The notes: a model not told the origin generated them from the letters alone. A stretch of 64,000 nucleotides of DNA from Kiloniellales bacterium (GCA_041617155.1 JBFJPL010000001.1:18834-82833); one strand, 5' to 3'. Shown: positions 1,690-12,219, numbered from the stretch's first letter. Made by a program: numbers and translations.

Positions 1690-2865
1690 TTGCGGACACA
1701 AGTCGGAATCGTCGGCGCCGGACCTTCGGGTACACTCTTGTCCCGGCTTCTCCGCCTTCGGGGGATCGAGACGGTTATCGTCGAACGGCGCAGTCGTGAT
1801 TATGTCGAGGGCCGGATCCGCGCGGGTGTTCTCGAACAGGGCACCGTCGATCTCCTCAATGACGCCGACGTAGGCGAGAGAATGCGGCGCGAAGGGCTGG
1901 TTCACGAGGGGATCGAAATCAGTCTGAACGGCCGGCTCCATCGAATCGACTTGAGGGCGCTGACCGGCGGCAGCGCGGTCACGGTTTACGGACAGACGGA
2001 AATTCAGAAAGATTTGAACGAGGCGCTGCTGGCCGCGCACGGCCAGCTTCTATTCGAGGCAGAGGATGTGAGCATCCACGACATCGACAGCGATCGGCCG
2101 AGGATCCGCTACCGTATGGACGGTGAGGTGCAGGAGCTCGCCTGCGACTACATTGCCGGCTGCGACGGCTTCCACGGCATCTGCCGCAAGAGCATTCCGG
2201 AGGGCACGCTCAAGACCTTCGAGCGTGTCTACCCGTTTGCTTGGCTCGGAATCCTGTCCGAGACGACACCGGTCAACGATGAGCTGATCTACGCCCAGAA
2301 CGAGCGGGGCTTCGCGCTGTTCAGCATGCGCTCGCACACGATGAGCCGCCTCTATCTCCAGTGTAGGCCCGATGAGGATCTCGATGAGTGGCCGGACGAG
2401 CGGATATGGAAAGAATTGCGTCTGCGGCTCGGTGGAGAGGCGGCCGAGCGCCTGCAAAGCGGACCGTCGATCGAAAAGAGCGTGACGCCGATGCGGAGCT
2501 TCGTGGCCGAGCCGATGCAATATGGGCGCCTATTCCTGGCCGGCGACGCCGCGCACATAGTTCCGCCAACTGGCGCCAAGGGCCTAAATCTTGCAGCGGC
2601 CGATGTCCGGGTCCTGTTTCAAGCGCTGTGCGAGTTCTATGGTGCCGGCCGCAGCGATCTACTCGACGCCTACTCGGACACATGCCTACGCCGGGTCTGG
2701 AAGGCTCAACGTTTCTCGTGGTGGATGACGTCAATGCTCCATCGTTTCCCAGAGGGCAGCCCGTTCGACAACAACGTTCAGCTGGCGGAGCTGGACTACC
2801 TGACCAGCTCTCAAGCCGCCAAGACTTCGCTTGCGGAAAACTATGTCGGCCTGCCTTTCGATTGA
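1690..2865 (+). CDS. pobA: 4-hydroxybenzoate 3-monooxygenase
   Basis: (M)RTQVGIVGAGPSGTLLSRLL...RIRAGVLEQGTVDLL...DYIAGCDGFHGICR...LFLAGDAAHIVPPTGAKGLNLAAADV...ENYVGLPF is collinear with classical PobA. A TTG start at 1690 follows GGAAG. The track start at 1474 is an N-terminal over-extension. Confidence 0.93.
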   Translation: MRTQVGIVGAGPSGTLLSRLLRLRGIETVIVERRSRDYVEGRIRAGVLEQGTVDLLNDADVGERMRREGLVHEGIEISLNGRLHRIDLRALTGGSAVTVYGQTEIQKDLNEALLAAHGQLLFEAEDVSIHDIDSDRPRIRYRMDGEVQELACDYIAGCDGFHGICRKSIPEGTLKTFERVYPFAWLGILSETTPVNDELIYAQNERGFALFSMRSHTMSRLYLQCRPDEDLDEWPDERIWKELRLRLGGEAAERLQSGPSIEKSVTPMRSFVAEPMQYGRLFLAGDAAHIVPPTGAKGLNLAAADVRVLFQALCEFYGAGRSDLLDAYSDTCLRRVWKAQRFSWWMTSMLHRFPEGSPFDNNVQLAELDYLTSSQAAKTSLAENYVGLPFD

Positions 2866-3162
2866 CCGGTCGGTTTCGATGGCCACGATGGAGTTCGCGA
2901 AGTCGCTCACATCCGGTGTTTGCCTTGTTTCTCAATCGGACCAACCCTGCTCCACCACTTAGGTCCGCTACGCATGTGACAGCGGAAGTTGGGCTCGACG
3001 AACGCGCCGTTGCCTTGGCCTGCGGGCAAGACTACGCTGATTTGCGAGTTCGCTGCGACGGCGCGCATAGTTTAGAGCAGCCAACGGCTAGGCCTTCGGC
3101 GGACCCTCGCGCTCGCGGTTCTGCGCCGGCTCAACTGCCAACGACAGAAAGCGGGGGTTGAT

Positions 3163-3176
3163 TTACTCAGTATTAT
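3163..3176. promoter_or_regulatory. Putative operator half-element TTACTCAGTATTAT shared with the 6268-6299 palindrome
   Basis: TCAGTATTATGTGCA (3167-3181) matches TCAGTATTATGCGCA (6272-6286) at 14 of 15 positions. It is an AT-rich motif in GC-rich DNA, about 80 bp upstream of the TRAP operon. Confidence 0.5.
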
Positions 3177-3257
3177 GTGCAGCGCACTGCGCATTCGGCG
3201 AAAAAATGATACGTGCGCCGCTACGTGCCGATCGAATTGTCAGGGGAGGAAACGATC

Positions 3258-4283
3258 ATGAAGATAGGATCCACGCTTGTCGGTGCGCTTATCGCCGCCG
3301 GACTTATGAGCCGTGCCGCGATGGCGGCTGAAATCACGTTGACGGTGCATCACTTCCTGCCGCCCAAAGCAAACGCTCACAGTGAAATGATCAAGCCCTG
3401 GGCCGACCGAATTAAGGAGCAGAGCAACGGCCGGATCGAGATCGAGATCTTTCCGGCCATGTCGATGGGCGGAAAGCCGCCTCAGCTCTACGGCCAGGTG
3501 CGCGACGGGCTCGCGGACATTGTCTGGACGCTGCTCGGCTACACGCCAGGCGTATTCCCGCGCTCTGAAGTATTCGAGTTGCCGCTCGTGCATGGCGGCT
3601 CGGCCAAGGCCACGACAATCGCGCTGAACGCTTCCTACGACCTGCTGGCAGAGGACTTCAAGGACGTCCATGTACTGTTCCTGCACTCTCATGATGGCAA
3701 TTTGATCCACTCGGCGACGCGCCCAGTGCGCACCTTCGCCGACGTGTCGGGGCTGAAGTTGCGCACGCCGTCTCGCACCGGCGCCTGGCTCCTGGAAGCG
3801 TGGAACGCGGAGCCCGTCGGCCTGCCGGTTCCAGCTTTGCCGGAAGCTATGGCGAAAGGCGTGGTCGATGGTGCATTGACCACCTACGAGATTGTACCGG
3901 CCCTGAAGTTGCAGGAACTGGACAAATACGTCACCGAACCGCCAGGGGGCGCCCGCTTCGGCACGGCGGTGTTCATGTTCGCCATGAACAAGGACCGCTA
4001 TGCGGAACTGCCGGATGACCTGAGGGCGATCATCGACGCCAATTCTCGCGATGCCGTCGCAGCTGAGGTCGGCGCGCTGTGGGAAGGCTTTGAGTTCGGA
4101 GGGGTCGAGGCGCTCAAGAAAGCCGGGGTCGAGACCATCGTACTCAACGCGGACGAGGCCGCCAAGTTCGACGCTGCCGCCGCCACGGTCGTGGACCGCT
4201 GGATAGCGGAGATGGCCGGCAAGGGCATTGACGGCGCCGCGCTGGTCGAACAGGCGCGGGCGGCGATTGCCGCGGCGCGCTGA
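3258..4283 (+). CDS. TRAP transporter substrate-binding protein (DctP family)
   Basis: ATG at 3258 follows GGGGAGGA. Signal peptide MKIGSTLVGALIAAGLMSRAAMA. DctP-like body, followed by small and large TRAP permeases. Confidence 0.88.
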   Translation: MKIGSTLVGALIAAGLMSRAAMAAEITLTVHHFLPPKANAHSEMIKPWADRIKEQSNGRIEIEIFPAMSMGGKPPQLYGQVRDGLADIVWTLLGYTPGVFPRSEVFELPLVHGGSAKATTIALNASYDLLAEDFKDVHVLFLHSHDGNLIHSATRPVRTFADVSGLKLRTPSRTGAWLLEAWNAEPVGLPVPALPEAMAKGVVDGALTTYEIVPALKLQELDKYVTEPPGGARFGTAVFMFAMNKDRYAELPDDLRAIIDANSRDAVAAEVGALWEGFEFGGVEALKKAGVETIVLNADEAAKFDAAAATVVDRWIAEMAGKGIDGAALVEQARAAIAAAR

Positions 4284-4352
4284 GCCCCTCCAATCTTGCG
4301 GGCTGGAGCCAGGCGACCCCGGTCCGCACTTCCCCCGATGATGGAGGCGTCA

Positions 4353-4850
4353 ATGCGCTCCGGCCTTGTCAAGTTGGTGGAGCTCTGGGCGTTTCTCGGG
4401 GGACTCCTGCTGATGGTGATCGTCCTGGTCACCACCACCAACGTGATCGCTTTCGCGCTCGACAAGCTGGCGCGGCTGGCTGGCTCAACGGTCTCAGGGC
4501 TTCCCGGATACGAGGACTTCGTGGGATTGGCGATCGGCGCCGCCGCGCTGACCTTCTTCCCCTATTGCCAGCTGCGCAAGGGTCATGTCGCGGTGGACCT
4601 GTTCGTTTCCAAGGCCCCGCGGAGGATGCGCCACGCGCTGGGCTACGTGTGGCTCTTGACCGCAATCGCGACGGCGCTGTTCCTGGCTTACTGGATGTGG
4701 CTGGGGATGTTCGAGAGCCGCTCTGACGATGCGGTCAGCCGTGTGCTGGGTTGGCCGGTGTGGCCGTTCTACGCCCCCGGCGTGGTCTCGCTGGTGCTAT
4801 GGGCGGCGGTCGCCGCCATGCAGATCAGGGGCGGCAAAGTCGATGGGTGA
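4353..4850 (+). CDS. TRAP transporter small permease (DctQ family)
   Basis: Four hydrophobic segments. ATG at 4353 is preceded by GGAGG. Its stop overlaps the start of the large permease gene. Confidence 0.8.
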   Translation: MRSGLVKLVELWAFLGGLLLMVIVLVTTTNVIAFALDKLARLAGSTVSGLPGYEDFVGLAIGAAALTFFPYCQLRKGHVAVDLFVSKAPRRMRHALGYVWLLTAIATALFLAYWMWLGMFESRSDDAVSRVLGWPVWPFYAPGVVSLVLWAAVAAMQIRGGKVDG

Positions 4851-6234
4851 GCGCGAACTCATCGGCCTTGCCGGCCTCGGCATCATGTTCCTTCTGCTCG
4901 CGCTTCGCATGCCGGTCGGCCTAGCCATGCTGGCGATCGGGATCGGCGGCAACTATGTCCTCAGTCTGTTTGTTCCGTTCCTGCGCTTCGAGCCCTATCT
5001 GAACCAGTTCAAGGCACTCTTATGGTCGACCGTGGCGAACTATGACCTGTCGGTCGTGCCGCTGTTCGTGTTGATGGGCTACCTGGCGAGCGAAGCCAAT
5101 CTGAGCCGTGACCTGTTTCGCGGACTCGAGGCGTTGATGAGCCGAAGACGCGGCGGCGTGGCCATGGCGGCGGTTGGCGCCTGCGGTGGCTTCGGCGCGG
5201 TTTGCGGCTCGTCGTTGGCGACCGCGGCGACAATGGGCAAGGTCGCGCTGCCGGAGCTAAGACGTCTGGGATACGCGCCACGTCTCGCAACCGGCGCCCT
5301 GGCGGCGGGCGGCACGTTGGGGATTCTGATCCCGCCTTCGGTGGCACTGGTGCTTTACGCGATCATCGTCGAGGGTTCGATCCTCAAGATGTTCCAGGCT
5401 GCGGTGATCCCGGGTCTTCTGGCCGTGATCGTCTTCATCGCGGTGATCGCGCTTGTGGTGCGGCTGAATCCCGCGCTTGCGCCCGATCCCAGCCCGATGG
5501 AGCGCGAAGCGCGCAGGGAAGCCCTGAGGCGGCTGACGCCGGTTTTGTGCATATTCGGCGGCATCATTCTCGGCTTGGGCTTCGGTTTGTTCACGCCGAC
5601 GCCGGCGGCAAGCATCGGGGTGTTCGTGATCCTGGTCTACGGATTCTGGCTGCGTTGGAAGACCGGCGAAGGGCTGAGCGCGCACGGCGCCGCCCAGGCG
5701 CTACGCGAAACCGCGGTCACATCGGGCATGATCTACCTGATCCTGTTCGGTGCCGAGGTGCTGAAGGGCTTCTTCACCCGCGCCGCCCTGCCCGCCGCGA
5801 TCGCCGATTGGGCGGCGGTCAGCGCATTCGATCCCTGGACGATCCTAATCCTGACGCTGTTGCTCCTGGTCTTGCTGGGCTGCTTCATGGAGTCGCTGGC
5901 GATGATCCTCGTGATCGTTCCGTTCATCTGGCCGACTCTGGTCACGCTGAACGGCGGCGATTACGTGAGGGCCGACAGCGCCGCCTACGGGCTCGATGTT
6001 GAAAGCCTCAAGATTTGGTTCGGGATCCTGGCGCTGGTTGTGGTCGAATTGGGACTGATCACGCCACCCGTTGGACTCAACGTGTTCATCATTTCGTCGC
6101 TGTCCGAGGGCACGCCGATGATGGAAACGTTTCGTGGCGTGGTTCCGTTCCTGATCGCCGAGGTCGGCCGCGTCGGCCTGCTGCTGGCGGTCCCGGCGAT
6201 CTCGCTCTTCGTGCCCCGGTTGCTCGGCGGATGA
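4843..6234 (+). CDS. TRAP transporter large permease (DctM family)
   Basis: MGERELIGLAGLGIMFLLLALRMPVGLAMLAIGIGG... is polytopic and DctM-like. The ATG at 4843 overlaps the DctQ stop. The track start at 4729 is over-extended. Confidence 0.9.
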   Translation: MGERELIGLAGLGIMFLLLALRMPVGLAMLAIGIGGNYVLSLFVPFLRFEPYLNQFKALLWSTVANYDLSVVPLFVLMGYLASEANLSRDLFRGLEALMSRRRGGVAMAAVGACGGFGAVCGSSLATAATMGKVALPELRRLGYAPRLATGALAAGGTLGILIPPSVALVLYAIIVEGSILKMFQAAVIPGLLAVIVFIAVIALVVRLNPALAPDPSPMEREARREALRRLTPVLCIFGGIILGLGFGLFTPTPAASIGVFVILVYGFWLRWKTGEGLSAHGAAQALRETAVTSGMIYLILFGAEVLKGFFTRAALPAAIADWAAVSAFDPWTILILTLLLLVLLGCFMESLAMILVIVPFIWPTLVTLNGGDYVRADSAAYGLDVESLKIWFGILALVVVELGLITPPVGLNVFIISSLSEGTPMMETFRGVVPFLIAEVGRVGLLLAVPAISLFVPRLLGG

Positions 6235-6267
6235 CGGCAAACCGGAAGCTAAAATTCACCTTTGCCA

Positions 6268-6299
6268 ATAATCAGTATTATGCGCATAATACTGATTAT
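6268..6299. promoter_or_regulatory. Perfect 32-bp palindrome ATAATCAGTATTATGC|GCATAATACTGATTAT, a putative tandem operator
   Basis: All 16 base pairs verified by hand. It is built from two nested ATAAT-N4-ATTAT units and ends 17 bp upstream of the 6317 start codon. Confidence 0.7.
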
Positions 6300-6316
6300 A
6301 GAATCGGGAGAGTGCG

Positions 6317-7504
6317 ATGGCACAGTCAATTTTCATCATCGCTGGCGGCGGTATCGGCGGTCTCGCCGCCGCTGTCGGCCTGGCCGGGAAGGGTATTCGG
6401 TCGATCGTGCTCGAACAAGCGCCGCAACTCGGTGAAATCGGTGCCGGCATACAGATCGGCCCGAACGCCTTCCACTGCTTCGACTATCTTGGCATCGGGG
6501 ACGAGGCCCGTGACAAGGCGGTCTACATCGATCAGCTGCGCCTGATGGACGCGACTTCGGGCGAAGAGATCACGCACATTCCTCTCGACGAACCTTTCCG
6601 CCGGCGCTTCGGCAACCCCTATGCGGTCGTGCACCGCGCAGACCTCCATGGTGTCCTGCTCGACGCATGCCGGCGCAGCGATCTGATCGACCTGCGCACC
6701 GACCATCGCGTCGAGGGGTACGACCAGGAAGCGGACGGCGTCCGGGTCCGCCTCGAAGGGCGCGACCCCGTCAACGGGGTTGCGCTAATAGCTGCCGAGG
6801 GGCTCAGGTCGCCGATCCGCGCTCAGATGATCGGCGACGGAGAGCCCGGTGTTTCCGGACATACGACCTATCGCTCGGTGATTCCGACGGAGCAGATGCC
6901 GGAGGATCTGCGCTGGAACGCGGCGACGCTCTGGGCCGGCCCGAAATGCCACATCGTTCATTATCCGCTCAAAGGCTGGAAGCTGTTCAACCTCGTCGTG
7001 ACCTATCACCGCGACGTCACCGAGGCCGTTGCCGGTGTGCCCGTTTCCAAGGAGGAAGTCCGCAAGGGCTTCGAGCACATCGCGCCCCGCGCCCGACAGG
7101 TGATCGAGCACGGCAAGGATTGGAAGCTCTGGGTTCTGTGCGACCGCGACCCGATTACCAATTGGATCGATGGCCGCGTCGTTCTGCTCGGCGACGCCGC
7201 GCATCCGATGCTGCAATATTTCGCGCAGGGCGCCTGCATGGCAATGGAAGACGGTGTCTGTCTCAGCCACATGATGGAGAAGCATGGCGGCAATATCGAC
7301 GCCGCCTTCGAGGCATATCGCGACCAGCGCGTCGTCCGCACCGCGCGGGTGCAAATGAGTTCGCGGCTGATCGGCGAATACATCTACCACCCCGACGGCG
7401 CCAAGGCCTTGGTCCGCAATGCGGTGATGAAATCGAAGAGCCCGGACGACTGGTACAACGGTCTTGCTTGGCTCTATGGCGGGACCGGTCTGACCGCCGC
7501 CTGA
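6317..7504 (+). CDS. FAD-dependent aromatic hydroxylase, most likely 3-hydroxybenzoate 6-hydroxylase
   Basis: IIAGGGIGGLAAAVGLAGKG (GxGxxG), RADLH, LLGDAAHPMLQYFAQGACMAMEDG. Sits directly upstream of gentisate 1,2-dioxygenase. Confidence 0.85.
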   Translation: MAQSIFIIAGGGIGGLAAAVGLAGKGIRSIVLEQAPQLGEIGAGIQIGPNAFHCFDYLGIGDEARDKAVYIDQLRLMDATSGEEITHIPLDEPFRRRFGNPYAVVHRADLHGVLLDACRRSDLIDLRTDHRVEGYDQEADGVRVRLEGRDPVNGVALIAAEGLRSPIRAQMIGDGEPGVSGHTTYRSVIPTEQMPEDLRWNAATLWAGPKCHIVHYPLKGWKLFNLVVTYHRDVTEAVAGVPVSKEEVRKGFEHIAPRARQVIEHGKDWKLWVLCDRDPITNWIDGRVVLLGDAAHPMLQYFAQGACMAMEDGVCLSHMMEKHGGNIDAAFEAYRDQRVVRTARVQMSSRLIGEYIYHPDGAKALVRNAVMKSKSPDDWYNGLAWLYGGTGLTAA

Positions 7505-7526: not shown

Positions 7527-8576
7527 TTGTCACTGACGGAAAAACCGGTCGAGACGCCGGAACGCAAGGCGTTCTACGACAAGATCGACAGCAAGAACCT
7601 GACCCCGCTCTGGGCCGTGCTGTCCGACATCATCCCACCCGAGCCGAAAAGCGCCTGCGTGCCGCATCGGTGGAAATTCGACGAGGCGAAGTCCTACCTG
7701 CTCGAGGCCGGTGGACTGATAACCGCGAAGGAGGCCGAGCGCCGCGTCCTAGTTCTCGAGAATCCGGGCATGCGCGGCGAGAGCAAGATCACGACCTCGC
7801 TTTACGCCGGGCTGCAGCTCGTCCTGCCGGGCGAGGTCGCGCCGGCGCACCGCCACAGCCAGTCAGCGCTGCGCTTCGTCCTCGACGGCGCCGGCGCGCA
7901 CACCGCCGTAAACGGCGAGCGCACGGTGATGGAAGTCGGCGATTTCGTGATCACGCCGCCGTGGGGCTGGCATGACCACGGCAACGAGACCGATGTGCCG
8001 ATGATCTGGCTGGACGGGCTCGACATCCCCATCGTCTCGCTGTTCGACGGCTCCTTTGCCGAAGGTCTGGGCGAGGACGCGCAGCCGATCACGCGCGAGA
8101 CCGGCGACAGCCTCGCCCGCTATGGCGCCAACATGCTGCCGGTTGACTTCGAGACGACGCGTTTGGTCTCGCCGATCTTCAACTATCCCTACGCGCGGTC
8201 GCGCGAGTCGCTCGAGCAAATGAAGAAACAGCAGGAATGGGATCCCTGCCATGGCCTAAAGCTGCGCTATGTCAACCCGGTCGACGGCGGCTTCGCCATG
8301 CCGACCATCGCCCCGTTCCTGCAGTTGCTGCCGAAGGGATTCAAGAGCGCCGCGCACCGCTGCACCGATGCGACCGTCTTCGTGGTCGTCGAGGGCGAGG
8401 GCCGCAGCACCATCGACGGCACGACCTTCGAATGGGGGCCGAAAGACATCTTTGTCGCCCCGAGCTGGAGGTGGACCACGCACGAGGCGGACAGCGAAGC
8501 GGTAATCTTCAGCTACTCCGACCGCGTCGCGCAGCAGAAGCTAGGTCTCTGGCGCGAAGATCGCGGCAACGCCTGA
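7527..8576 (+). CDS. Gentisate 1,2-dioxygenase (bicupin)
   Basis: FYDKIDSKNLTPLWAVL...LENPGMRGESKITTSLYAGLQLVLPGEVAPAHRHSQSALRFVLDGAGAHTAVNGER...GDFVITPPWGWHDHGN. TTG start follows GAAGGAGGG. Confidence 0.9.
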   Translation: MSLTEKPVETPERKAFYDKIDSKNLTPLWAVLSDIIPPEPKSACVPHRWKFDEAKSYLLEAGGLITAKEAERRVLVLENPGMRGESKITTSLYAGLQLVLPGEVAPAHRHSQSALRFVLDGAGAHTAVNGERTVMEVGDFVITPPWGWHDHGNETDVPMIWLDGLDIPIVSLFDGSFAEGLGEDAQPITRETGDSLARYGANMLPVDFETTRLVSPIFNYPYARSRESLEQMKKQQEWDPCHGLKLRYVNPVDGGFAMPTIAPFLQLLPKGFKSAAHRCTDATVFVVVEGEGRSTIDGTTFEWGPKDIFVAPSWRWTTHEADSEAVIFSYSDRVAQQKLGLWREDRGNA

Positions 8577-8590
8577 AGGAGCTTCAAATA

Positions 8591-9292
8591 ATGGAGTACG
8601 TGTTCCCGCCAGCCGCCCCCGCCACAGTCGCCGTGGCGGGCGAAACGGCGCGCTTCCCGGTTCGCCGCATCTTCTGTGTGGGCCGCAACTACGCCGCGCA
8701 CGCGCGCGAGATGGGGCGAGACCCGGACCGCGCGCCGCCGTTCTTCTTCACCAAGCCCGCCGACAGCGTGGTCGATGACGGCGAGACGGTCGCCTATCCG
8801 CCTGAGACGGAGAATTTCCACTACGAGGGCGAACTGATCGCGGCGATCGGCACTGGCGGCTTCGACATTCCCGTCAGGCAGGCTCTCGACCATGTCTGGG
8901 GCTACGCCGTTGGCAACGAACTGACCCGCCGCGATCTGCAGCTCGCGGCGCGCACGCAGGGCCGGCCCTGGGATTGGGGCAAGGCTTTCGACCGGTCCTC
9001 GGTCTGCGGTCCGATCCATCCGGTCGCCGAAGTTGGCCATCCCGCCTCCGGCGCGATCCGGCTGACGGTCAATGGCGAGGTGAAGCAGAACGCCGATCCT
9101 CGGACCGGCCTCTTCTGTCACGGCGATGCACCCGGCCTTGCCGACGTCTGCCTTTACGCCCAGGTTTGTAACAACCGGCGGTTCGATGTTGAGATGACCT
9201 CCTACCCTACGATTGTGCGCATCTTCGCGGCTTGTGACGCGGTCGAGGCCTTCCGCCTGGCTGCCCCCGGAGCCCAACACGACGCGGCCTGA
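8591..9292 (+). CDS. FAH-family hydrolase (fumarylpyruvate or maleylpyruvate hydrolase) with an aberrant C-terminal third
   Basis: RFPVRRIFCVGRNYAAHAREMG...PFFFTKPADS...YEGELIAAIG...GYAVGNELTRRDLQ...GRPWDWGKAFDRSSVCGP fits the FAH fold. After about 9095-9115 the expected L-PGD--TGTP-GVG signature is missing in this frame. Confidence 0.7.
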   Translation: MEYVFPPAAPATVAVAGETARFPVRRIFCVGRNYAAHAREMGRDPDRAPPFFFTKPADSVVDDGETVAYPPETENFHYEGELIAAIGTGGFDIPVRQALDHVWGYAVGNELTRRDLQLAARTQGRPWDWGKAFDRSSVCGPIHPVAEVGHPASGAIRLTVNGEVKQNADPRTGLFCHGDAPGLADVCLYAQVCNNRRFDVEMTSYPTIVRIFAACDAVEAFRLAAPGAQHDAA

Positions 9293-9354
9293 GAAAGATC
9301 AGGCCGTGAACAAAAGCCCAAGATTGATAAGGGTGCACCCAGGAGATAAGGACC

Positions 9355-9876
9355 ATGCGGAGCGATCGAACATTGTCTGAGAAGGTGTGCCAACCCGAAG
9401 AGCTCGGCGTCGAAGCGATATTCGAAATGCCCGGCCACCTGCTTCGACGCTGCCATCAGATCGGCGTTGCGATCTTCATAAACGAGTGCGAGCCCTACGA
9501 GCTGACACCGTTGCAATACGTGACCCTGGCGGCACTGGCGCGATACGGTCCTCATGATCAGGTGACTCTTGGTGGTTTTACCGCGCTCGACCGAACGACA
9601 ATCGCGGTCGTTATCAAGAATCTCGAGGAGCGGGCGCTCGTATCTCGACACTCTTCGACAAAGGACAAGCGCTCGAAGATCGTCGAGATCACCGACACCG
9701 GCCGAGACCTGTTGCTGGCAGCCAAACCCTACGTGGAGCACGCGCAGGACCGCATCGTTGCGCCGCTGAACCACCGCGAACGCGAGCAGCTTACGCGACT
9801 CCTGAGCAAGATTGCCGATGGGAACAATGCGCTCAGCAGGGCGCCGAAGCGCGTAAGATCGAGAGGGACCGATTGA
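9355..9876 (+). CDS. MarR-family transcriptional regulator
   Basis: PGHLLRRCHQIGVAIF...LTPLQYVTLAAL...DRTTIAVVIKNLEERALVSRHSSTKDKRSKIVEITDTGRDLL is a winged-helix MarR pattern. Confidence 0.85.
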   Translation: MRSDRTLSEKVCQPEELGVEAIFEMPGHLLRRCHQIGVAIFINECEPYELTPLQYVTLAALARYGPHDQVTLGGFTALDRTTIAVVIKNLEERALVSRHSSTKDKRSKIVEITDTGRDLLLAAKPYVEHAQDRIVAPLNHREREQLTRLLSKIADGNNALSRAPKRVRSRGTD

Positions 9877-10032
9877 CATGGCCGCGGTCTTTGAGAACAA
9901 AGCAAGAAATTTGCCTGGTAGATCCCGGTGGCTGCGGGCCCCGGCAGCCAAATCCAACTCAGCCCACTTTGATGAGCTGACACCGGCTCTTGATGCGGCT
10001 GCTCGATTTTCATTCCTGGAATTCCCCGAGGG

Positions 10033-11376
10033 TTAAGAGCTGGCGTTCCCGAGCTTGGCGTAAGAAGCGAGAAGTCGGTCCACCAGCAAGGGCGCGGATC
10101 CGACACTCCCCTCGATCCGGCGAAGATCCTCCCAGTCGATCGGGGCTTTCGTGCGCTCGGCCAGAACGTCGAACATGTGGCGGCGCGCGCCGATCGCTTC
10201 CCGGCATGCGCTTTTGACCAGGGACTGCGCTTTCGGGCGGGCCATGTGCCGGGCGAGCGCGAAGGTGGCGGCTTCGGCCAGGATCAAGCCCTGCGAAGCA
10301 TCGAGATTGGCCCGCATGCGATCAGCGTCGGCCACGAGGTTCCTGGCCGCGGCCTCGGCATGGCGGAGGGCCGTGCCGGTCGCCACGGCCATCTGCGGCA
10401 GGGCCAGCCATTCCAGCATCCAGGCCGCGCCGTCGCGCTCCTCCGCGTGCAACACGGCTTGATGCACGGCGCTCACCTGCGCGGCATTGAAGCGCGCGAG
10501 CGCGACGAGTGTCTCCGCAACCACCGGATTGGACTTCTGCGGCATGGTCGAGGAGCCCCCGCCGGCACCAGCCCGCACCTCGGCGATCTCCGACTTCCCG
10601 AGCAGGATCAGGTCCTGTCCCATCTTGCCGAGACCGCCGGTGACAAGCGCCAGCCAGCCGGCGAGTTCCGCCAAGGCGTCACGCTCAGCATGCCAGGGCC
10701 CGGGCGGACGGCGGAGATCGAGCTCGTCGGCGAGCGCCTCCAGCACGGCGACACCCCGATCGCCCAGCGCGGCGAGCGTGCCGGAGGCGCCGCCGAGCTG
10801 CACCCCGAGGAGACGCGGGCGAAGCTCGGCCAGACGCCGACGATGCCGGATCAACGGCGCGAGCCACCCGGCGATCTTCAGTCCGAAGGTGGTCGGCGTG
10901 GCCTGCTGGGAACGGGTGCGTGCCGCCATGACGGTGTCGCGGTATCGCTTCGCCTGTTTGGCGAGCGCATCGGACGCGGCCGCCAGACGGGTGTCGAATC
11001 CCTCGAGACAATCGCGCAGGCGCAGCACAAGTCCTGTATCCATGATGTCCTGCGAAGTGGCGCCCCAATGGACGAAGTTCGCCGCCTCGCCGCCGACCGC
11101 TTCGCGAACCCGGGCGACCAGACCCGGGATCGGCACGCCATTTTCCGCAGTGGCGGGCGCCAGGGAAGCAGGGTCGATCTCGAGGCGCGTAGCGACCTCC
11201 GCGATCCGGGTCGCCGCCTTGCCGGGGATGACGCCGAGCCGGCCCTGGACTTGCGCCAAGGCGGCCTCGACGCGCAGCAGCGCTCGCAATTCGGCCGCCG
11301 CGGAGAAGTGGGCCGCGGTCTCCTCGTCCGACAACAGATCGCGATACAGTGCGGAGTCAAATGGGGTCACGGTCAT
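10033..11376 (-). CDS. pcaB: 3-carboxy-cis,cis-muconate cycloisomerase
   Basis: Fumarate-lyase superfamily signature GGGSSTMPQKSNP, WGATSQDIMDTG, and pca operon context. Confidence 0.9.
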   Translation of the reverse strand: MTVTPFDSALYRDLLSDEETAAHFSAAAELRALLRVEAALAQVQGRLGVIPGKAATRIAEVATRLEIDPASLAPATAENGVPIPGLVARVREAVGGEAANFVHWGATSQDIMDTGLVLRLRDCLEGFDTRLAAASDALAKQAKRYRDTVMAARTRSQQATPTTFGLKIAGWLAPLIRHRRRLAELRPRLLGVQLGGASGTLAALGDRGVAVLEALADELDLRRPPGPWHAERDALAELAGWLALVTGGLGKMGQDLILLGKSEIAEVRAGAGGGSSTMPQKSNPVVAETLVALARFNAAQVSAVHQAVLHAEERDGAAWMLEWLALPQMAVATGTALRHAEAAARNLVADADRMRANLDASQGLILAEAATFALARHMARPKAQSLVKSACREAIGARRHMFDVLAERTKAPIDWEDLRRIEGSVGSAPLLVDRLLASYAKLGNASS

Positions 11377-11391
11377 GCGGTCATCAAGAAC

Positions 11392-12219
11392 TCAAGAGGG
11401 CAGAGACAGCATCTGACGCGCTTCCGCCGGCGTCGCGGGCTTCCTGCCGTACTCGGAGCAGAGCTCGGCGACCCGGGCGACCAGCTCGGCGTTGCTCGCC
11501 GCCAGCCGCGTCCGGTCGAAGCGGAGGTTGTCCTCGAGGCCGGTCCGGCAGTGGCCGCCCAGGTCCAGCGCCCAGTGGTTCATCTGCAGCTGATCGCGGC
11601 CAATGCCGGCGGCGGTCCAGGTCGCCTCCGGCATCAAGTTCTTCAACTGAGCGACCTCGAACTCCAGAATCTCACGGCGGGCCGGCAAGGCGTTTTTCAG
11701 ACCGAAGACGAATTGCACGTGGACCGGTTTGGCCAGCAGGCCGGCCTCGGCCATTTCGGCCGCCGTGTAGAGCATCGCCAGGTCGAAGACCTCGACCTCC
11801 GGCTTGATCCCCTTCTCGAGCATGGTCTCGGCCAGACTGCGGACCAGGTCCGGGTGGTTCTCGTAGACCATGTTCGGAAAATTGACCGACCCGGTCGCGA
11901 GCGAAGCCATGTCCGGCTTCAGGTAGAGCATGCCGCCACGCTGCTCCGGCGCCCGGCCGCGCCCTCCGGTCGAGAATTGGATGATCATGTCTGGGCAGTG
12001 TCTGCGAACGCCTTCCTGAAAGGCGGAGAACTTCTCGGGGTCCGAGGACGAGCTTTCATCGGCCTCGCGGGCATGGACATGGACCAGGGCCGCGCCAGCC
12101 TCGAAGGCCTCGTGGGTCGATTCGATCTGCTCCGCGACCGTGATCGGCACGGCCGGATTGTCCTTTTTGCGCGGCACCGATCCGGTGATCGCGACGGCGA
12201 TGATGCAGGGTTGGCTCAT
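11392..12219 (-). CDS. BKACE-family enzyme (3-keto-5-aminohexanoate cleavage enzyme-like, DUF849)
   Basis: IIAVAITGSVPRKKDNPAVPITVAEQIESTHEAFEAGAALVHVHAR...CRTGLEDNL is the TIM-barrel BKACE pattern. Inserted between pcaG and pcaB. Confidence 0.8.
   Translation of the reverse strand: MSQPCIIAVAITGSVPRKKDNPAVPITVAEQIESTHEAFEAGAALVHVHAREADESSSSDPEKFSAFQEGVRRHCPDMIIQFSTGGRGRAPEQRGGMLYLKPDMASLATGSVNFPNMVYENHPDLVRSLAETMLEKGIKPEVEVFDLAMLYTAAEMAEAGLLAKPVHVQFVFGLKNALPARREILEFEVAQLKNLMPEATWTAAGIGRDQLQMNHWALDLGGHCRTGLEDNLRFDRTRLAASNAELVARVAELCSEYGRKPATPAEARQMLSLPS

Follow-up and report, generated by a model that had tools for sequence, protein, structure and literature searches.

Directly upstream of a predicted 3-hydroxybenzoate 6-hydroxylase gene, a 64,000-nucleotide stretch of DNA from a Kiloniellales bacterium (GCA_041617155.1, JBFJPL010000001.1:18834-82833; the whole stretch is called the window here) carries a perfect 32-bp palindrome, operator O1, and upstream of the genes for a TRAP transporter it carries a partial copy, site O2. 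The locus raises the question of which protein reads the palindrome, and whether the same protein also governs uptake through the second copy. The palindrome lies over a predicted promoter, is the exact consensus of a family of sites found beside related MarR genes, and very probably serves as operator for the MarR-family repressor whose gene lies at 9355-9876; the standing of O2 is far less certain.

The palindrome and the predicted promoter

6268-6299, no strand assigned: operator O1, a perfect 32-bp palindrome whose conserved 30-bp consensus part, 6269-6298, reads TAATCAGTATTATGC|GCATAATACTGATTA
6262-6290, plus strand: predicted sigma-70 promoter of the hydroxylase operon, with the -35 hexamer TTGCCA at 6262-6267, a 17-bp spacer and the -10 hexamer CATAAT at 6285-6290
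6317-7504, plus strand: 3-hydroxybenzoate 6-monooxygenase (the hydroxylase), the first gene after O1 (NCBIfam NF006021, 568 bits, cut-off 459)
9355-9876, plus strand: marR, MarR-family regulator of 173 aa (Pfam MarR, 39.1 bits, cut-off 24.6)

Read from the sequence and recovered in a repeat scan, O1 (ATAATCAGTATTATGC|GCATAATACTGATTAT) has 16 of 16 complementary pairs and a spacer of 0, and its right end is followed by 17 bases (6300-6316), including the ribosome-binding site GGGAGAG, before the hydroxylase ATG at 6317. This is as the first-pass annotation of the stretch, made from the sequence alone, had described it. A mismatch search likewise bore out the copy of the core that it had placed upstream of the TRAP gene: the 15-mer TCAGTATTATGTGCA at 3167-3181, upstream of dctP, agrees with the O1 core at 14 of 15 positions. 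When up to 3 mismatches to the core are allowed, the 64-kb window contains three matches, two of which are the two strands of the palindrome. By base-frequency arithmetic at about 63% G+C, the mean of the window, 128 kb should contain about 0.002 matches of 14/15 and about 1e-5 perfect 32-bp palindromes.

To place O1 among its relatives, we used an alignment of MarR homologues as the query and obtained 80 loci from species-representative genomes, with MarR proteins 50-63% identical to that of the window; the single MarR protein as query retrieved no relatives from genome contigs. The annotated Agrobacterium leguminum plasmid locus was added as the 81st. At most of these loci the hydroxylase, dioxygenase and hydrolase genes, at times with an isomerase gene, are followed by marR on one strand, and 23 loci have TCAGNNNTATGNGCATANNNCTGA (at least 15 of the 17 specified bases) in front of the hydroxylase gene, at 16-56 bp from its start codon. 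A symmetrised 30-bp matrix made from these 23 related sites, with the window excluded, gives O1 55.8 bits, which is the highest score possible, so that the window carries the exact family consensus. O2 (3164-3193) ranks next at 22.3 bits and the third-best position reaches -1.1 bits. The wider search for copies that had been suggested earlier thus yields, within the 64-kb window, two sites only by mismatch count and by matrix, and no further operator upstream of pobA or the pca operon, the rest of the 64 kb scoring -1.1 bits or less. The top score among 20 shuffled windows was 4.1 bits. An origin by chance or from a repeat element was considered and rejected, as the window holds just the two sites, both of them intergenic, and no repeat family.

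The predicted promoter TTGCCA-17-CATAAT, a 10/12 match in the promoter scan, is interleaved with O1: the right arm contains the -10 hexamer and the left arm occupies the spacer between -35 and -10. This architecture is shared by the related sites, 20 of 23 having the TTG of the -35 element 20-23 bp left of the dyad and 16 of 23 having exactly CATAAT as the hexamer at +2 to +7 from it. In silico, the arrangement is therefore that of a (pseudo)palindromic operator placed over the -35/-10 region of its target promoter. A promoter-like match on the minus strand at 6295-6323 (GTGCCA-17-TATAAT), directed back into dctM, is most likely a by-product of the palindrome's AT-rich flank.

Co-occurrence of the palindrome with MarR relatives

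Among the 81 loci, the palindrome TCAGTATTATGC|GCATAATACTGA scores at least 30 bits in 27, nearly always as a single copy directly upstream of the first gentisate-pathway gene, and at least one half-site is present in 59. Nine hydroxylase loci without a close MarR relative served as negative controls; these are linked to LysR or IclR, encode just a distantly related MarR (27-44% identity), or lack a regulator, and the palindrome is absent from all nine (at most 4.1 bits). The regulator is thus linked to the operon, and regulator and site occur together across genomes (27/81 against 0/9 in the controls), which makes the MarR gene at 9355, the candidate already named in the first-pass annotation, by far the best one.

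The primary sequence of the site is near-invariant across Alpha- and Gammaproteobacteria. Three loci (L044, L045 and L048) carry a 30-mer identical to that of the window with a MarR that is only 58% identical and a hydroxylase that is 48-60% identical, so that conservation is higher in the DNA site than in the surrounding proteins.

Symmetry and arrangement of the half-sites

The operator consensus, TRnTCAGTATTATGC|GCATAATACTGAnYA, has its conservation centred on GC|GC. It would provide a precise, testable operator, overlapping the -10 element, for a widespread MarR clade that appears to govern 3-hydroxybenzoate/gentisate catabolism, often with linked TRAP uptake, in Alpha- and Gammaproteobacteria, and it permits regulon prediction in metagenome-assembled genomes. 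In a set of 29 operator sites (window positions 6266-6301 and their equivalents), there is essentially no variation at offsets 2-5, 7 and 9-11 from the dyad, and a T..A pair is found at offset 15 in 27 of the 29. The two arms covary at offsets 1, 12 and 13 (permutation p = 0.003, 0.0002 and <0.0002, respectively), with all four pair types seen at offset 13, yet they are independent of one another at offsets 6, 8 and 14, which are equally variable. Such position-specific covariation fits two identical subunits reading symmetric half-sites better than generic hairpin pairing, and it suggests that offsets 1, 12 and 13 are lineage-specific read-out positions. When MarR residues were compared with these three offsets by mutual information, the top columns were hypervariable and confounded by phylogeny.

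Beyond the 24-bp core, nothing stands out but the conserved T..A at offset 15 and the covarying offset 13, and in these alignments the conserved unit is one 24-30-bp palindrome centred on GC|GC. The nested ATAAT-N4-ATTAT dyads into which O1 had previously been divided do occur in the window, but relatives show no conservation of their outer arms. As binding units they were rejected, since complementarity is not conserved at offsets 14, 16 and 17, nor is the sequence of the outer ATAAT arm.

In relatives, the half-sites are arranged as abutting inverted copies, as inverted copies with 3 bp added, or as 12-bp direct repeats. Direct repeats of the half-site TCAGTATTAT with a 12-bp period are found in Thiothrix/Thiolinea and a few other loci (L017, L018, L021, L030, L040 and L042 at about 4276-4300; L053 at about 2129), and several relatives, such as Thiothrix, L053 and L054, have no sites other than single or tandem half-sites. 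Locus L089 (114-155) combines direct and inverted copies. In Halomonadaceae the arms lie 3 bp further apart (12+3+12 or 13+1+13) or form arrays with a 15-bp period, these variant sites standing upstream of dctPQM (L084 4850-4877; L057, L061 and L062 at about 4858-4890; L071 1320-1365). One could suppose that the 12-bp half-site TCAGTATTATGC is a modular unit that works in several arrangements and that the TRAP site is a genuine tandem-type operator, although we think this unlikely. If true, the DNA-binding mode would be unusually flexible, or oligomeric, for a MarR protein, and positions 1, 12 and 13 would be lineage-specific specificity determinants co-evolving with the protein.

A sub-clade in which marR comes first (L014 8620, L019 8540, L022, L065, L077) has its site between marR and the hydroxylase gene. 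The central TATGCGCATA is kept there and the outer TCAGT/ACTGA blocks are changed to GCATA/TATGC, and the resulting GCATA-N4-TATGCGCATA-N4-TATGC reads as abutting 14-bp palindromes.

Proposed mechanism and its alternatives

We put the probability that O1 is bound by the product of marR (9355-9876) as its operator at roughly 85%. Computation gave the sites with their significance, the shared layout of promoter and operator, and the association with MarR orthologues; that MarR binds, as one dimer per site, that it represses, which inducer it answers to and whether O2 works are inferred. A MarR homodimer would bind the 24-30-bp dyad, one dimer per palindrome being the simplest reading by analogy with other MarR-DNA complexes. 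The bound protein would fill the promoter spacer and cover the -10 of TTGCCA-N17-CATAAT, and RNA polymerase, which would otherwise start transcription at about the right edge of the palindrome, would be blocked. Blocking RNA polymerase at the promoter is the classical MarR mechanism, and the scheme would be ordinary bacterial gene regulation that leaves the understanding of MarR regulation unchanged. Repression would hold the genes for the 3-hydroxybenzoate 6-hydroxylase, the gentisate dioxygenase, the hydrolase remnant and MarR off. As no promoter in front of marR was predicted within 9250-10080, marR is probably the last gene of the hydroxylase operon, and this position would make the circuit negatively autoregulated. 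Release from the DNA would follow when the dimer binds an aromatic acid, which is most likely 3-hydroxybenzoate and/or gentisate. The weaker second site at 3164-3193 may bring dctPQM uptake under the same repressor; with its single consensus half-site, it resembles what decay would leave of a fuller operator.

Several observations weigh against this scheme. A half-site of at least 13 bits is missing from 22 of the 81 MarR-relative loci. The +3 spacing and the direct repeats are not what would be expected of a rigid symmetric dimer, and they make the binding mode uncertain. As regards the inducer, the operons of some relatives start with the dioxygenase gene and others adjoin a gene for a MobA-like 3-hydroxybenzoate 4-hydroxylase. 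It could also be argued that another transcription factor, encoded elsewhere, binds the palindrome and that the adjacent MarR controls something else, given that the window covers only 64 kb of the genome and that MarR proteins are more often divergent to their targets than at the end of an operon. This is very unlikely, however, because motif and MarR orthologues are found together in 27 loci of unrelated taxa and in none of the nine hydroxylase loci without them, and because the operator variants follow the MarR clade (the marR-first L014 type, the +3 spacing of Halomonadaceae, the tandem repeats of Thiothrix). MarR is, moreover, the sole regulator in about 20 kb, being the only transcription factor in that length of a 45.7-kb contig of assembly GCA_041579315.1 with the same gene arrangement.

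The palindrome might instead act in RNA, as a hairpin in transcripts that read through from dctM and as an element of 5' untranslated region stability, processing or translation control. The RNA fold of 6236-6325 does have a stem of 14 bp closed by a GCGC loop (minimum free energy of the whole stretch -29 kcal/mol, z -4.67), the scan found no terminator between dctM and the hydroxylase gene, and the complementarity of the arms covaries at offsets 12 and 13. A hairpin would not, however, account for a primary sequence that is near-invariant beyond its pairing across Alpha- and Gammaproteobacteria, nor for the lack of covariation at the variable internal offsets 6 and 8. The conserved -35 and -10 elements put the start at the right edge of the palindrome, so that the left arm would be untranscribed from that promoter; the direct-repeat and +3-spaced versions in relatives are unable to form the same hairpin; and the motif tracks the presence of the MarR gene. 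On the grounds of sequence conservation, promoter position, offsets 6 and 8 and the non-hairpin variants, the RNA reading was rejected in spite of the stable fold, and we regard it as hardly credible beside a MarR operator in DNA.

The MarR protein and related regulators

The window protein has the winged helix-turn-helix MarR domain (PF01047, 39.1 bits, cut-off 24.6; PF12802, 32.0 bits, cut-off 27), and it matches 53 distinct PDB sequences, essentially all of them MarR-family regulators. Its nearest solved structure, though only distantly similar, is BpsR (6pcp/6pco, E 1e-16, about 140 residues aligned). Both BpsR of Bordetella and NicR of Pseudomonas putida are 6-hydroxynicotinate-responsive MarR-type repressors of nicotinate degradation; BpsR acts at the promoters of a flavin hydroxylase operon and is freed by the hydroxylase's aromatic-acid substrate, 6-hydroxynicotinate (PMC6837509). 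The residues that bind this ligand in BpsR (Tyr15, His23, Arg26 and His32; PMC6837509) are not all retained: His23 and Arg26 correspond to H28 and R31 of the window MarR, but His32 is replaced by Gly37, and Tyr15 lies outside the aligned region. The gene neighbourhood differs as well, as hydroxylase and dioxygenase equivalogs are found here in place of nicC and nicX. Many members of the clade bear the JGI name 'lower aerobic nicotinate degradation pathway regulator', which is the NicR function. Because of the His32 to Gly37 change and the neighbours that are not nic genes, this label is probably an over-extension, a propagated mis-annotation, and the operator consensus would improve the annotation of the clade.

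MarR-type regulators beside gentisate genes are already known (GenR, NagR2/MhbR), as is the 3-hydroxybenzoate sensor MobR. GenR of Comamonas testosteroni CNB-1, which Chen et al. are said to have described in 2014, is reportedly a MarR-type repressor of the gentisate (gen) genes that binds the gentisate 1,2-dioxygenase promoter and has gentisate, 3-hydroxybenzoate and benzoyl-CoA as effectors. GenR of Comamonas testosteroni is a MarR-family regulator that recognises benzoyl-CoA (PMC4424350). The window MarR, set beside GenR by description only, is also encoded beside a gentisate 1,2-dioxygenase gene, which it would presumably control; it differs in that its gene is the last of the operon and its operator is a 24-30-bp palindrome.

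MobR of Comamonas testosteroni KH122-3s is a 3-hydroxybenzoate-responsive MarR repressor of mobA (10.1101/619296). Both MobR, which is freed by 3-hydroxybenzoate, and the window MarR are tied to a 3-hydroxybenzoate hydroxylase gene, but the window target is a 6-hydroxylase that feeds the gentisate route and not a 4-hydroxylase. In Vreelandella, relatives of the window MarR (55% identity) have as neighbours a TRAP operon and a gene for a MobA-like hydroxylase of 628 aa. The compact repressor/operator pair could be a candidate hydroxybenzoate biosensor, a use to which MobR has already been put. The NagR2/MhbR-type MarR regulators of Polaromonas naphthalenivorans CJ2 and Burkholderia xenovorans LB400 stand beside genes for the gentisate pathway and for a transporter, close to whose promoter a palindromic site is predicted (PMC3572157). 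They are, however, divergently transcribed and paired with an MFS transporter rather than a TRAP system, and the LB400 site, ATTGTTTCACAAACTAAT, is unrelated in sequence to the window operator (PMC3572157). Within the searchable literature, nothing but unrelated primers matched the operator string, and searches by topic turned up no account of the motif or of the clade's operator.

The second site and the TRAP transporter

3164-3193, no strand assigned: site O2, with a left half-site TACTCAGTATTATGT (3164-3178) near the consensus and a degraded right arm GCAGCGCACTGCGCA
3158-3163, plus strand: -35-like TTGATT, read from the sequence, placed relative to O2 almost as the -35 element is to O1
3258-4283, plus strand: dctP, TRAP substrate-binding protein of 341 aa (Pfam DctP, 143.6 bits; gene call in L001)
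4353-4850, plus strand: dctQ, TRAP small membrane subunit of 165 aa (Pfam DctQ; gene call in L001)
4843-6234, plus strand: dctM, TRAP large membrane subunit of 463 aa (Pfam DctM, 259.5 bits; gene call in L001)

The three proteins, a family-7 solute-binding protein with a DctQ and a DctM subunit, make up a DctPQM three-component TRAP transporter (PF03480, PF04290 and PF06808, all above their cut-offs). The solved structures nearest to the window DctP are TRAP solute-binding proteins (E 5e-77 to 3e-66), which we take to be aromatic-acid binders. O2 lies 65 bp upstream of the dctP ATG at 3258; its left half-site scores 21.7 of 27.3 bits.

Among the dctP relatives that were drawn from metagenomes, L089, L090 and L091 were informative. 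Upstream of dctP, L089, the nearest of the dctP relatives (DctP 78% identity), has CTTGCA-tctcgg-CAGTATTATGTG-CAGTATTATGCGCATAATACTG, that is, a half-site plus a full 46.6-bit palindrome. The window agrees with it base for base through the first half-site, beyond which TATTA is changed to CGCAC, 4 bp are missing and the -10 position reads CAGCGC. L090 (DctP 76% identity) runs from dctPQM directly into the hydroxylase and dioxygenase genes without a site between them. Two Halomonadaceae loci place the transporter genes inside the regulated unit: L071 has the gene string operator-dctPQM-hydroxylase-dioxygenase-hydrolase-isomerase-marR, and in L084 a MobA-like 628-aa hydroxylase is followed by operator-dctPQM-marR. 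The TRAP systems of these units are not orthologous to that of the window (DctM 27% identity). To judge from such gene orders, the linkage of TRAP uptake to this MarR clade is a recurring solution in relatives. The co-control of uptake and catabolism by one repressor, as put forward in the first-pass annotation, thus has counterparts elsewhere; for this genome, where O2 is degraded, it is plausible but uncertain.

The odds that O2 is a weak operator here rather than a relic are roughly even. Against a working operator stand the degraded right arm, the poor hexamer at the -10 position (CAGCGC), the loss of the half-site upstream of dctP in L091 (DctP 75% identity), and the promoter scan, which detected no sigma-70-like promoter around O2, so that of the two copies earlier assigned to promoter positions only O1 overlaps a predicted promoter. 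If O1 is a functional MarR operator and O2 a non-functional relic, uptake would not be co-regulated by MarR and the 15-mer match would be inherited debris, a reading to which we give slightly less than an even chance. It draws on the same points and on the substitution and 4-bp deletion in the right arm relative to L089, on a score of 22.3 bits, when the sites that precede pathway genes in relatives all reach 33.7 bits or more, and on decay elsewhere in the cluster (the hydrolase::isomerase deletion described below). It is opposed by the near-consensus left half-site, by a score that is still about 18 bits over the best shuffled one, by the Thiothrix, L053 and L054 loci with their sole single or tandem half-sites, and by the intact dctPQM genes.

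The gene cluster

1690-2865, plus strand: pobA, 4-hydroxybenzoate 3-monooxygenase
2866-3257, no strand assigned: intergenic spacer with O2, 392 bp
6235-6316, no strand assigned: intergenic spacer with O1, 82 bp
7527-8576, plus strand: gentisate 1,2-dioxygenase (TIGR02272, 582 bits, cut-off 442)
8591-9292, plus strand: hydrolase-family open reading frame, a 233-aa in-frame chimera with its junction at about 9092-9094

The operon downstream of O1, previously called a gentisate operon, is truncated. In the open reading frame at 8591-9292, residues 1-168 of a fumarylpyruvate hydrolase, its N-terminal two-thirds, are fused to the C-terminal residues 151-215 of a maleylpyruvate isomerase (residues 168-232 of the reading frame), so that neither gene is intact, and no second copy of either is present in the 64-kb window. 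Both genes are complete in the relatives L015, L017 and L060, and the chimera is what remains after a deletion of roughly 650 bp. It is identical in the five independent assemblies that contain the whole gene (L001, L002, L003, L005 and L006), and L004 is partial. In this lineage the route beyond maleylpyruvate is probably broken, although marR is intact and the operator a perfect consensus.

The marR gene is followed by the pca (protocatechuate) cluster on the opposite strand. At the other end of the locus, pobA has no PobR-type regulator nearby, and its 392-bp spacer to dctP is unusually long compared with about 80 bp in L091. Within the pcaB...pcaD protocatechuate cluster, a gene of the BKACE family (beta-keto acid cleavage enzyme) lies at 11392-12219 on the minus strand.

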